From the UHGV virus genome UHGV-0014568: a stretch of 37,204 nt of DNA. One strand, written 5' to 3'. The number at the start of each line of letters is the position of its first letter. Within the stretch, counting starts at the first letter, position 1. The notes below the pieces were generated by a model that saw only the letters and a program-made list of their open reading frames with translations, did not search any database and was not told the origin of the DNA. The position numbers and the translations under genes are program-made. Shown here one piece after another: positions 6,528-32,383 of the stretch. The stretch is from a virus.

Positions 6528-6856
6528 TACTCACCCCCATTGCCGTACAGGGTTTCAGCCGCTGATTTTTCTACATCCCCGGAAACAGGAGCGATCGCCA
6601 TATCAGTGATCTGCAGATCGGCGCTGCGATTAACACCATCGTCAGTTTCTCTGGCAGACAGGCCTCGAATAACAGCCTTTGCAGTTATCATCACTTCTGT
6701 TCCGACGCCCTGAGGTTGCGCCTTCAGCTTATTCAATGTGTCGTTATTAAGAGTGATGCACAGCCCCCACGGGTATTCATCGCGAGTTCTGGTTTCTCCG
6801 CTCTCATCCTGGTAGCTGTCAGTGCCGGTTTTGAGGTTTACGAGTTCCATATACAC
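6527..6856 (-). CDS. Small virion-associated protein, unknown function
   Basis: 109-aa ORF inside the head/tail structural block. Confidence 0.35.
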   Translation of the reverse strand: MYMELVNLKTGTDSYQDESGETRTRDEYPWGLCITLNNDTLNKLKAQPQGVGTEVMITAKAVIRGLSARETDDGVNRSADLQITDMAIAPVSGDVEKSAAETLYGNGGE

Positions 6857-6900
6857 TCCTGCAATAAAGGGGCCGAAGCCCCTTGTCTGATTCGCGAGGC

Positions 6901-7246: not shown

Positions 7247-7684
7247 TTAACCAGTTACTTTTGAGCGGATCGGATACGGCGTATTGGCATCAACATCAAG
7301 ACTGATACCAGCAGTGAATTCGCCAGCCGTTAGTGGGCCAGTTGCGACGGAGTAGTTAACACGCAGATATCGCTTAACACCGGCAGGCACCTTTGCAGAA
7401 ACAATTCGTTTACCTGCTGTCAGGGCGGTCTTTGCCAGTGCGCCACTATCATAAATAGTGGTCCATGAGCTGTTATTCTCACTCGTCTGCAACTGGATGT
7501 TTACAGTTGCATCACCGCTTGCCGCGGCGGCTGTGTTAACCAGCGCCCAAAACTCAAGCGGGTAACCCACGCCGATATCACGATGTTTTCCGTCAATTGG
7601 ACCGAGATCGATTACGTCAGTAGAAGCCGCGGTATTCGTAACCGCCTGAGCTTCGGAGAACATCAACAGTTTGTCGGTGATCAT
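7247..7684 (-). CDS. Putative minor capsid/decoration protein
   Basis: 145-aa ORF immediately downstream of the major capsid gene, with GGAGAAAG RBS; Ser/Thr/Ala-rich beta-type composition. Confidence 0.35.
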   Translation of the reverse strand: MITDKLLMFSEAQAVTNTAASTDVIDLGPIDGKHRDIGVGYPLEFWALVNTAAAASGDATVNIQLQTSENNSSWTTIYDSGALAKTALTAGKRIVSAKVPAGVKRYLRVNYSVATGPLTAGEFTAGISLDVDANTPYPIRSKVTG

Positions 7685-7699
7685 CTTCTTTCTCCATTA

Positions 7700-7719
7700 G
7701 TGGGTCTGTTACGACCCAC
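7700..7719 (-). other. Perfect 7-bp stem hairpin (GTGGGTC-N6-GACCCAC) just after the major capsid stop
   Basis: Inverted repeat between capsid stop (7736) and the next start (7684); no U-run follows, so attenuator or RNA-processing/stability element rather than a full terminator. Confidence 0.4.
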
Positions 7720-7735
7720 AGGTTAATAACAGGCG

Positions 7736-8728
7736 TTACACCACGCGGGCTTCTGTTTCCAGAAGCGCATCAGTTTCACGGATTGGTACACCACGGAATG
7801 AAGTCCACCACTCGCCTTCTGTCTCTTTTACGCTGATCGCCAGAGATGTTTTCTCCAGAGATTGCAGATCAAGAGCCTGGCCTACAGTGCGGTTCATGTA
7901 GAACACTGGGCGCCCCATGCCACGGTTTGGAATGCGATGCAGTGCTTTAACCATCAACTTCGCAATATTTGCGGCAGAGGAAGGTTCTGAAAGATTGCTG
8001 ACATCGATGTTTGCAATGCGAACGACATAACGCCAGTCACGCAGAGCAAGTCCGTTATCCCATTTGTAATGGGTACGGTAGCCTTCGTACTTGCCGCCAT
8101 TAGCATCTTCCAGTGTCACCTGGCCTTTATCTTCCATCTGAATGCCAGCCTTCTGCCCTTTCGGGAAGATGCCATGCACGGTGTTTTCGCCCCACACCAC
8201 TAACCAGATTGAGGTGTTATCTGTACCCGTGCCACCAGCATCAATGATGTTCTGAGCATTACCCGCAGACAGGCTGGAATAGCGGGAGGACAGCCCCATA
8301 AACTGCTGAGGGTTAACGCTGGAATCACCATAAAACAGCGTCTGCGCCATCTGCTGATTCATCGCTTCAATAAATGCTCGGTCTTCAGACAGGCGGAATT
8401 CGGCGGTATTGCCGTTCAGATCAGCCAGTGACTTATCGACTTCAGCATAGGTTTCCAGCATGCCAACGGAATCGGTGACCTGCACTGTGGTTGATTTGCT
8501 TGGCTGTACGCCATAGTTCAGCAAACGCCAGGTAGCTGAAGGTAAACCAGAACGAATGGTGGTTCGGTGTCCGGTAGGAAGGTTCCCTTCGACAAAAGGC
8601 ATATCCTGAAGGATCGGGTTAGTTTGACCGAGAAGCTCGATAATCTTATCGACTTTCCCGTTTGGATCGACGCGCTTACCCCAGTCAGCCAGCGTTAGCG
8701 CAGTTAAGCCTTTAACAGCCATTGTCAT
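7736..8728 (-). CDS. Major capsid protein
   Basis: 330-aa ORF directly after the scaffold-like gene and followed by a hairpin; size and position typical of an HK97-fold coat protein. Confidence 0.65.
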   Translation of the reverse strand: MTMAVKGLTALTLADWGKRVDPNGKVDKIIELLGQTNPILQDMPFVEGNLPTGHRTTIRSGLPSATWRLLNYGVQPSKSTTVQVTDSVGMLETYAEVDKSLADLNGNTAEFRLSEDRAFIEAMNQQMAQTLFYGDSSVNPQQFMGLSSRYSSLSAGNAQNIIDAGGTGTDNTSIWLVVWGENTVHGIFPKGQKAGIQMEDKGQVTLEDANGGKYEGYRTHYKWDNGLALRDWRYVVRIANIDVSNLSEPSSAANIAKLMVKALHRIPNRGMGRPVFYMNRTVGQALDLQSLEKTSLAISVKETEGEWWTSFRGVPIRETDALLETEARVV

Positions 8729-12055: not shown

Positions 12056-12132
12056 GTGGCATTAGCTCAGTCGGACAGAGCAACCGCCTTCTAAGCGGTT
12101 GGTCGCAGGTTCGAATCCTGCATGCCACGCCA
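12056..12132 (+). tRNA. tRNA-Arg (anticodon UCU, reads AGA)
   Basis: Hand-folded cloverleaf: acceptor GTGGCAT/ATGCCAC, D-stem GCTC/GAGC, anticodon stem ACCGC/GCGGT with loop CTTCTAA (TCT at 12090-12092), T-arm GCAGG-TTCGAAT-CCTGC, discriminator G and encoded CCA. Confidence 0.85.
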
Positions 12133-12330
12133 GAATCACGCCTAAGGACCGTGATGCCAGAAGTTCCAGGTGCTTGGCGGTGATGGTTTCCCTTGAAGGA
12201 CTATCACCGCCCTTTTTACAGCAGGACGCCATTGCGATGACTTCATGCTGTAAACCAGTACAGCCACGGAAGGCATAACTCATTGCTTCCAGTTCGCCCG
12301 GTTCGCCGGGCATTTTTTTAAGGTGAGATT

Positions 12331-14956: not shown

Positions 14957-14968
14957 GTGACATGTCAC
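14957..14968. repeat. 12-bp perfect palindrome GTGACATGTCAC (copy 2 of 3)
   Basis: Exact palindrome overlapping the stop of the upstream 115-aa ORF, about 110 nt upstream of the terS ATG. Confidence 0.8.
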
Positions 14969-15312
14969 ACTATTAATTTCGTTTCATGCCAGCCTTTAGT
15001 CACCCAGCATTGCGAGTCACCATTACACGGGCATGAATTAACTGGAACTCTCTCGCCGCACTTACCGCAACGTTTTCTGCTGATCGATTTTATACGCCCG
15101 CGCACACGTGCATCATCCTGGCGGATCAGCAGCGCGATGTACTCGGCCATTTCATAGGGATCGCGACCAGGGCGCCGGGCGGCGCAGTTCCGCGCCAGCA
15201 TTTCCTGCTCCTGCTTATCCAGCACCAGTTCAATTTTGCGCTCACCGGCGGCGGACTGCCGAGCGCGCTGCGCGGCTTTGCGTTCTGCGGGGGATTTAGC
15301 CACGAACCGCAC
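14965..15312 (-). CDS. Arg-rich protein with C-terminal Cys cluster, unknown function
   Basis: 115-aa ORF (GTG start); C-terminal CGKCG...CPCNG zinc-binding-like motif; start uncertain; overlaps the small ORF 15296..15418. Confidence 0.3.
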   Translation of the reverse strand: MRFVAKSPAERKAAQRARQSAAGERKIELVLDKQEQEMLARNCAARRPGRDPYEMAEYIALLIRQDDARVRGRIKSISRKRCGKCGERVPVNSCPCNGDSQCWVTKGWHETKLIV

Positions 15313-21793: not shown

Positions 21794-21815
21794 AACTATA
21801 GTTTTCAGAAAGTAA

Positions 21816-21837
21816 GCCGCCTCATGGCGGCTTTTTT
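21816..21837 (+). terminator. Rho-independent terminator after the repressor gene
   Basis: GCCGCC-TCAT-GGCGGC followed by TTTTTT. Confidence 0.7.
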
Positions 21838-24157: not shown

Positions 24158-24206
24158 CCACCACCGCGGCGCCACACGCGCCGCACTGCAACCAAGAGAG
24201 GTATTT

Positions 24207-32360: not shown

Positions 32361-32382
32361 AGAAAAGGCCGCGAAAGCGGCC
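32351..32382 (-). terminator. Terminator-like hairpin GGCCGC-GAAA-GCGGCC with minus-strand U-rich tail
   Basis: Perfect 6-bp GC stem at 32367-32382; TTTTCTTTATG follows on the minus strand (end of internal-virion-protein transcript); no T-run on the plus side. Confidence 0.45.
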
Positions 32383-32383
32383 T

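Follow-up and report, generated by a model that had tools for sequence, protein, structure and literature searches.

The window, by which we mean the whole stretch of 37,204 nt analyzed here, is 98–99% identical to phiV10 and TL-2011b, and also to phiv142-3 and others, temperate podoviruses of the genus Uetakevirus in the epsilon15-like group. Of 5426 complete E. coli genomes, 519 (about 1 in 10) carry the prophage segment, and the window has an integrase gene. Thirty of its proteins, all large ORFs among them, were scanned. They comprise structural proteins (portal, protease, tail, internal virion and tailspike), terminase, integrase and proteins of replication and recombination, and none is an RNA polymerase. 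It follows that transcription of the late genes must rely on the host RNA polymerase.

The feature considered here lies between the gene for the major capsid protein and that for a capsid cement, or decoration, protein of the Bbp16 family (Table 1). In addition to the family matches listed in the table, the capsid ORF matched the structures of the BPP-1 capsid protein (3J4U_A, 1e-128) and epsilon15 gp7 (3J40_A, 2e-85), while the cement ORF matched the “cementing protein” 3J4U_H (1e-25) and the “capsid decoration protein” 8CJZ_B, an identity that agrees with the RefSeq annotation in E. coli genomes. The BPP-1 capsid model (3J4U) contains seven chains each of capsid and cement protein, i.e., the two proteins are equimolar in this solved relative. 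The genes neighboring the hairpin are all on the minus strand. From the portal to the internal virion protein genes, adjacent genes overlap or are separated by at most 8 nt, except for two gaps, each of which contains a hairpin: one of 51 nt between the capsid and cement genes, and one of 44 nt (measured to the listed GTG start) after the gp9-like gene. From this tight packing, we infer that the head–tail module is read as one polycistronic late transcript.

A tRNA-Arg gene (anticodon TCT; 12056–12132) is encoded on the + strand, unlike the late genes, within a 1370-nt gap between the large terminase and portal genes. Two strong terminator-like hairpins are located downstream of it, at 12176–12211 and 12296–12311.

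The hairpin after the capsid gene

On the + strand, positions 7700–7719 read GTGGGTCTGTTACGACCCAC. In the mRNA, which corresponds to the minus strand, this sequence (7719–7700) forms a perfect 7-bp stem, including five G-C pairs, that closes a 6-nt loop. Starting from the capsid stop codon (TAA at 7738–7736), the order in the mRNA is UAA-CGCCUGUUAUUAACCU-GUGGGUC-GUAACA-GACCCAC-UAAU-GGAG-AAAGAAG-AUG, where the final AUG (7684–7682) is the start codon of the cement gene. The earlier note had described a perfect 7-bp stem placed after the capsid stop and ahead of the next ribosome-binding site, with no U-run, and was correct in every particular: 16 nt separate the stop from the stem, another 4 nt separate the stem from the GGAG Shine–Dalgarno sequence of the cement gene, and the 8 nt on its 3' side, UAAUGGAG, include only two U residues.

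Table 1. Features at and around the boundary between the capsid and cement genes, with their coordinates in the window.
Feature	Coordinates	Strand	Details
Major capsid protein gene, 330 aa	7736..8728	minus	PHROG 212 at 4e-113; Pfam PF20911 GP7 at 2e-149
Single-stranded spacer, stop to stem, 16 nt	7720..7735	minus	CGCCUGUUAUUAACCU
RNA hairpin	7700..7719	minus	5' arm 7719-7713 GUGGGUC; loop 7712-7707 GUAACA; 3' arm 7706-7700 GACCCAC
Shine–Dalgarno sequence GGAG, cement gene	7692..7695	minus	4 nt past the stem, 7 nt ahead of the ATG
Bbp16-family capsid cement/decoration protein gene, 145 aa	7247..7684	minus	Pfam PF21190 Bbp16 at 3e-47
Second intercistronic hairpin	6861..6884	minus	AAGGGGC-UUCG-GCCCCUU, then U-rich UAUUGC; terminator-like

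The energy of the hairpin is about −12.4 kcal/mol when folded alone and −13.6 kcal/mol for the centroid in context. A folding test on 81 nt gave z = −1.45, with 15 of 200 shuffled sequences folding equally well, which is a weak result from a single sequence. Perfect 7-bp hairpins are about three times more common in the window (44) than in dinucleotide shuffles (14.6 ± 3.9), and those with at least five G-C pairs number 13, compared to 3.1 ± 1.9 in shuffles. Only about 0.004 such GC-rich hairpins would be expected by chance in one 51-nt gap. The exact palindrome at 7700–7719 is unique in the window, giving a single match even when two mismatches were permitted. (Other GC-rich 7-bp hairpins occur in gaps at 32366–32383, on the + strand with a GAAA loop, at 21814–21833 and at 24166–24184.) The decisive evidence for the hairpin is comparative.

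The sequence UAAC or UAAU occurs four times within the 57 nt of 7682–7738 on the minus strand: once each at the stop codon, in the loop and immediately past the stem, and once 2 nt ahead of the stem. Three of the four copies are in frame with the capsid stop, and may be back-up stops.

Conservation of the spacer and its stem

Spacers were collected from annotated phages, from 25 bacterial genomes (including Kluyvera, Pantoea, Rahnella, Buttiauxella, Thiobacillus and Dechloromonas) and from IMG/VR contigs queried with four different capsid proteins. The capsid protein of the window itself retrieved only 100%-identical proteins from IMG/VR, which were useless for covariation, and diverged capsid queries were used instead. 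The 307 related loci yielded 87 distinct capsid-to-cement spacer sequences, the lengths of which are bimodal: 9–29 nt in 11 variants and 44–66 nt in the other 76. The short spacers, which include those of epsilon15, Ab31 and Kp4865-1, have no comparable hairpin; that of Shamal forms no more than a weak stem of 6 bp (−6.3 kcal/mol). In contrast, 73 of the 76 long spacers form a perfect stem with 6 bp or more and an energy no higher than −10.9 kcal/mol. Judging from this distribution, the spacer exists to hold the hairpin. The three exceptions, all from IMG/VR contigs, have a single C·A or G·A mismatch in the stem (L098, seen once, and L110, seen at two loci) or a deletion of one base (L222, seen once), and may stem from sequencing errors, represent evolutionary intermediates or belong to decaying prophages.

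The relatives that carry a hairpin span the Enterobacterales and beta-proteobacteria, and their stems are diverse, with 44 distinct arm pairs and 38 distinct loops. In BPP-1, BcepC6B, RapA and the beta-proteobacterial prophages, unrelated GC-rich stems are found at the equivalent site. The distance from the stop codon to the stem is 12–17 nt (median 16) in 62 enterobacterial variants and 5–17 nt across all clades, while that from the hairpin to the ATG is 14–33 nt. The Shine–Dalgarno sequence is outside the stem in every variant. In the enterobacterial relatives, the stem ends 3–6 nt before GGAG, which is invariant in a MAFFT alignment of 65 sequences. The lineages without a hairpin have the Shine–Dalgarno sequence directly after the stop, with gaps of 9–12 nt, a layout typical of translational coupling.

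For the analysis of covariation, a covariance model was built from 18 ungapped close relatives and then used to align 66 distinct sequences. (Plain MAFFT alignments of all variants were set aside, because they placed the 3' arm of the Klebsiella-type clade off by one column and would have given wrong pair counts.) In the 66-sequence alignment, 99.1% of the cells were paired, compared to 75% in shuffles, double changes were present at all seven pairs, and 105 cells had a double change, compared to 24 ± 9 in shuffles. Sliding the partner by 1–3 columns reduced the pairing to 25–57%. Since an alignment made with a covariance model leans toward the structure, an ungapped MAFFT alignment of the 18 close relatives was added as a check; in this subset, which was chosen by us and leaves out the mismatch singletons L098 and L110, pairing was 100%, compared to 15–47% when slid, and two pairs covaried. 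When the 27 distinct 7-pair stems were joined in a minimum spanning network, 14 double changes from one Watson–Crick pair to another and 15 steps between Watson–Crick and G·U pairs were needed, versus five steps that created a mismatch. These patterns indicate that the hairpin is under selection for pairing.

An A·C juxtaposition on the mRNA strand is a G·U pair on the opposite strand, so that the two strands can be distinguished by the non-Watson–Crick pairs that they tolerate. A first count of this asymmetry was biased by extending the helix through flanking A·C juxtapositions, and was replaced by one restricted to internal, transition-type juxtapositions flanked by at least two Watson–Crick pairs on each side. 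Counted in this way, the mRNA strand has 21 internal G·U pairs and one A·C, which arose at several independent positions, although not all of them are independent in phylogeny. At pair 6 of the stem, the E. coli prophages have U-A at 128 loci, U·G at three, C-G at 14 and C·A at one, which is the classic compensatory route via a wobble intermediate. In the Klebsiella/Kluyvera-type clade, the loops are tetraloops and all are of the GNRA type (GGAA, GGGA, GUAA, GAAA, GUGA and GCGA), a restriction that fits the stability of RNA, but not of DNA. Since pairing is kept by covariation, G·U greatly outnumbers A·C and the tetraloops are of the GNRA type, the comparison points to selection acting on the folded, sense-strand RNA.

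The hexaloop GUAACA of the window also occurs on unrelated GC-rich stems in three beta-proteobacterial prophages (L025, L030 and L032), the capsid proteins of which are only 62–63% identical, and a fourth (L033) has GUAAUA. The shared loop could be either a coincidence or a conserved motif.

Termination, message protection and translation

For intrinsic termination of the host polymerase, a hairpin that lacks a U-tract is poorly suited. The hairpin at 7700–7719 has the GC-rich stem-loop of an intrinsic terminator, but not the 7–8 nt U-rich tract directly after the stem: the 8-nt tail has a mean of 1.4 U across 74 variants, and three or fewer in 72 of them. The site was not listed in a consensus terminator scan. 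From its sequence, then, the hairpin is not a canonical intrinsic terminator. The second hairpin of the operon differs in this respect. It sits between the gp9-like and gp10-like (PF21628) genes, directly upstream of AGGAG, at a site where the equivalent in epsilon15 is annotated as a rho-independent terminator. Its stem is nearly invariant (GGGGC-UUCG-GCCCC), and its U-rich tail (CCCCUUU[A/C/U]UU) is retained by 22 of the 24 unique upstream sequences obtained from relatives. Because the same operon keeps the U-tract on its second hairpin in most relatives, the missing U-tract at 7700–7719 appears to be selected, or deliberate.

The gene that follows the second hairpin is homologous to epsilon15 gp10, which is annotated there as a major coat protein, an odd place for a terminator. 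In the ORF list this gene starts with the GTG at 6856; the 324-nt gene annotated in phiV10 and an AGGAG at 6860–6856 instead favor the ATG at 6850. Elsewhere in the window, adjoining the small terminase gene on its upstream side, a 115-aa protein (14965–15312, minus strand) matched PHROG 536, “transcriptional regulator”, without a Pfam match, and is a candidate activator or antiterminator of the late genes. Should it render RNA polymerase resistant to termination, both operon hairpins would act only at the level of RNA.

The best explanation available to us is that the hairpin acts as a barrier to 3'-to-5' exonucleases (an mRNA decay terminator) and shields the capsid portion of the late transcript, and we give this about an even chance of being correct. 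We infer the mechanism from the anatomy of the site and by analogy. In E. coli, stable stem-loops without U-tracts define mRNA 3' ends and protect them against PNPase and RNase II (PMC6061677), and intercistronic or internal hairpins cause the segments of one operon to decay at different rates, examples being malEFG and the consecutive hairpins of menBCE (PMC5927463). The hairpin at 7700–7719 resembles such elements in being a stem-loop that lies at the 3' edge of a cistron and, leaving 14–18 nt before the ATG, keeps clear of the ribosome-binding site that follows, and in that its structure, not its sequence, is conserved, and on the RNA strand. In the proposed scheme, the host RNA polymerase would read through the hairpin, which lacks a U-tract, and decay of the long transcript would start at endonucleolytic cuts or at 3' ends farther downstream. 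PNPase and RNase II would next be halted at the hairpin base, so that the portal–protease–capsid segment would outlive the distal segments, giving more capsid protein per transcript. At 5 nt or more from the stop (16 nt here), the stem is presumably far enough away not to be melted by the terminating ribosome, and with at least 14 nt between the hairpin and the next start codon the following ribosome-binding site would stay free. The U-tract hairpin at 6861–6884 would add a second step, causing the mRNA level to fall stepwise along the operon. The spacing would also fit a function connected with the 3' end of the capsid gene, since the distance from the stop stays within 5–17 nt while that to the ATG varies from 14 to 33 nt.

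Several points argue against protection. The stem is modest (7 bp with five G-C pairs, about −12 to −14 kcal/mol) and, as its z-score shows, no energetic outlier. A 3' hairpin shields everything upstream, including the low-copy portal and protease messages, unless there are further cuts. A strong step-down after the capsid gene has no obvious stoichiometric rationale if the cement protein is equimolar with the capsid protein, as it is in BPP-1. Finally, epsilon15, Ab31 and Kp4865-1 manage without the hairpin.

The hairpin could serve translation of the cement gene, either by insulating its ribosome-binding site or by looping out about 20 nt for the hand-over of ribosomes from the capsid stop; this is possible, though we do not consider it probable. 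It might hold the synthesis of capsid and cement protein near 1:1, and might keep a strong GGAG single-stranded and apart from the capsid coding sequence. The exclusion of the Shine–Dalgarno sequence from every stem, with its margin ahead of the ATG, the close approach of the enterobacterial stem to GGAG, the placement of the Shine–Dalgarno sequence directly after the stop in lineages without a hairpin and the equimolar cement and capsid proteins of the solved relative are all consistent with such a role. However, in distant clades the hairpin is 5–14 nt from the stop and 15–33 nt from the ATG, so that it lacks a conserved position with respect to the ribosome-binding site, and the extra-stable tetraloops and GC-rich stems suggest selection for stability over geometry. 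A more elaborate version would be a dedicated stoichiometry device instead of a generic stabilizer. A factor of the ribosome or the phage would recognize the clade-specific loops (YAAY or GNRA) of a structured spacer, which would hand ribosomes over from the stop of capsid to the start of cement, or would gate translation of cement on the output of capsid. This would replace the direct coupling from stop to Shine–Dalgarno sequence in the epsilon15-type relatives, and would account for a spacer that is either missing or about 50 nt in length, and for its location between two proteins that are equimolar in the solved capsid, but we regard it as improbable. Weak or partial termination, or pausing, by the host RNA polymerase, possibly aided by NusA or NusG, would lower transcription past the capsid gene, and is rather unlikely. 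The location directly after the capsid gene mirrors that of inefficient phage terminators that balance expression (T7, cited in PMC9163698), the stem energies are within the range of terminator hairpins (PMC6061677), and a few distant variants have semi-U-rich tails, e.g., L313 with UCCUUUCUUA. These points have to be set against the U-poor tails in general, the absence of the site from the terminator scan, the proper U-tract that most relatives keep on the second hairpin, and the protein encoded just downstream, which is equimolar with the capsid protein in the solved relative.

The loops are constrained within clades, being N-UAAC-N or YAAY in the clade of the window and GNRA in the Klebsiella-type clade, and the recurrence of the GUAACA hexaloop in distant prophages might likewise suggest an operator for a specific RNA-binding protein, of the phage or host, that regulates expression of capsid or cement. 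With 44 distinct stems and 38 distinct loops, no motif is common to all clades, the GNRA loops are more simply explained by stability, and a candidate RNA-binding protein was not identified in the window; we consider an operator very improbable. The sequence is a perfect inverted repeat, identical on both strands, and its folding score is unremarkable, as might be expected of a chance palindrome or of a signal in the DNA, such as a site for a dimeric protein or a cruciform. However, the stem sequences change freely while pairing is kept, G·U is tolerated on the mRNA strand only, and hardly any such hairpins are expected in the gap by chance. A DNA palindrome or chance match is thereby effectively excluded.

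Two other candidates, an RNase III site and a stimulator of recoding at the stop, were rejected. RNase III requires about two helical turns, and the stem is far shorter than needed for a cleavage site. A stimulator of stop read-through or frameshifting would have to act at a UAA stop with the next in-frame stop inside the loop, nine codons on, and a conserved extension is absent. Within the 37-kb window, to which the search was confined, the hairpin is not a REP-type repeat, as it occurs as a single copy, and its stems differ between relatives. A reading of the flanking spacers by eye gave no clean match to the RNase E motif (RN|WUU). Searches against Rfam returned only the tRNA for the whole window at the gathering thresholds, and nothing for 7600–7820 at E ≤ 1.

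Comparison with known elements

The Rhodobacter puf operon provides an example of an intercistronic, protective stem-loop. The hairpin at 7700–7719 resembles this element and those of malE–malF and menBCE (PMC5927463) as a stable hairpin without a U-tract at the 3' boundary of the more abundant cistron, with a conserved structure, polymerase read-through (presumed here) and a second hairpin farther down the operon. Function has been demonstrated for those elements and is a prediction here; furthermore, the malE–malF element is a multi-copy REP repeat, while the hairpin is unique in the window. The protective structures of Dar and Sorek are mostly inside coding sequence, unlike this hairpin, which has its own dedicated spacer. 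The stem-loops without U-tracts at E. coli 3' ends share its anatomy and its host, in which it would face the same exonucleases, but are found at the ends of transcription units (PMC6061677), whereas 7700–7719 lies between two genes that both need to be expressed, and involvement of Rho is not indicated. In the phage family itself, the annotated epsilon15 gp9–gp10 terminator, to which 6861–6884 corresponds, is in the same operon and is likewise intercistronic and directly before a Shine–Dalgarno sequence. It combines a U-rich tail with a near-invariant stem, whereas the hairpin after the capsid gene combines the absence of a U-tract with a fast-evolving, covarying stem.

The T7 terminator Tphi, located after gene 10, acts on the single-subunit RNA polymerase of the phage and has a U-run. 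It shares with our hairpin the position directly after the major capsid gene, and is thought to raise the capsid message relative to distal genes while allowing read-through. The other properties of Tphi are not found here: the 30 scanned proteins include no such polymerase, and the hairpin has no U-run. The earlier note had seen in the locus an arrangement of T7-like phages, characterized by a missing U-run and serving to boost capsid mRNA relative to downstream genes. The T7 framing has to be given up, as the phage is a temperate Uetakevirus with an integrase, no RNA polymerase was found among the 30 scanned proteins, and Tphi itself has a U-run. A step-down in expression exactly here is also less obvious than the note implied, and a lesser need for downstream genes does not hold for the cement gene, the product of which is equimolar with the capsid protein in 3J4U. 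What stands of that interpretation is a selected structure in the mRNA strand, as the covariation and the 21-to-1 ratio of G·U to A·C attest. Between the two mechanisms that it had offered, 3' end protection appears, on the anatomy and the analogies described above, to be the best supported, and partial termination the weaker half.

Searches of the literature for phiV10, epsilon15 and BPP-1 gave no description of a hairpin between the capsid and cement genes, and the hairpin is unannotated in the phage records and RefSeq E. coli records examined. In kind, it is an ordinary intercistronic, operon-internal stem-loop, most likely a message stabilizer and not a T7-style terminator. Its value lies in the unusually clean covariation, the contrast with the neighboring terminator-like hairpin and the natural loss variants, which make the mechanism easy to test. 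The operon amounts to a natural experiment with two hairpins, the first U-tract-less and covarying, the second mostly U-tracted and near-invariant. It also provides a caution for annotation, in that a hairpin after a capsid gene is not always a “terminator”. More generally, it makes testable the question of how temperate phages that depend on the host polymerase set the ratios of their structural proteins, whether by decay barriers, termination or translational coupling.
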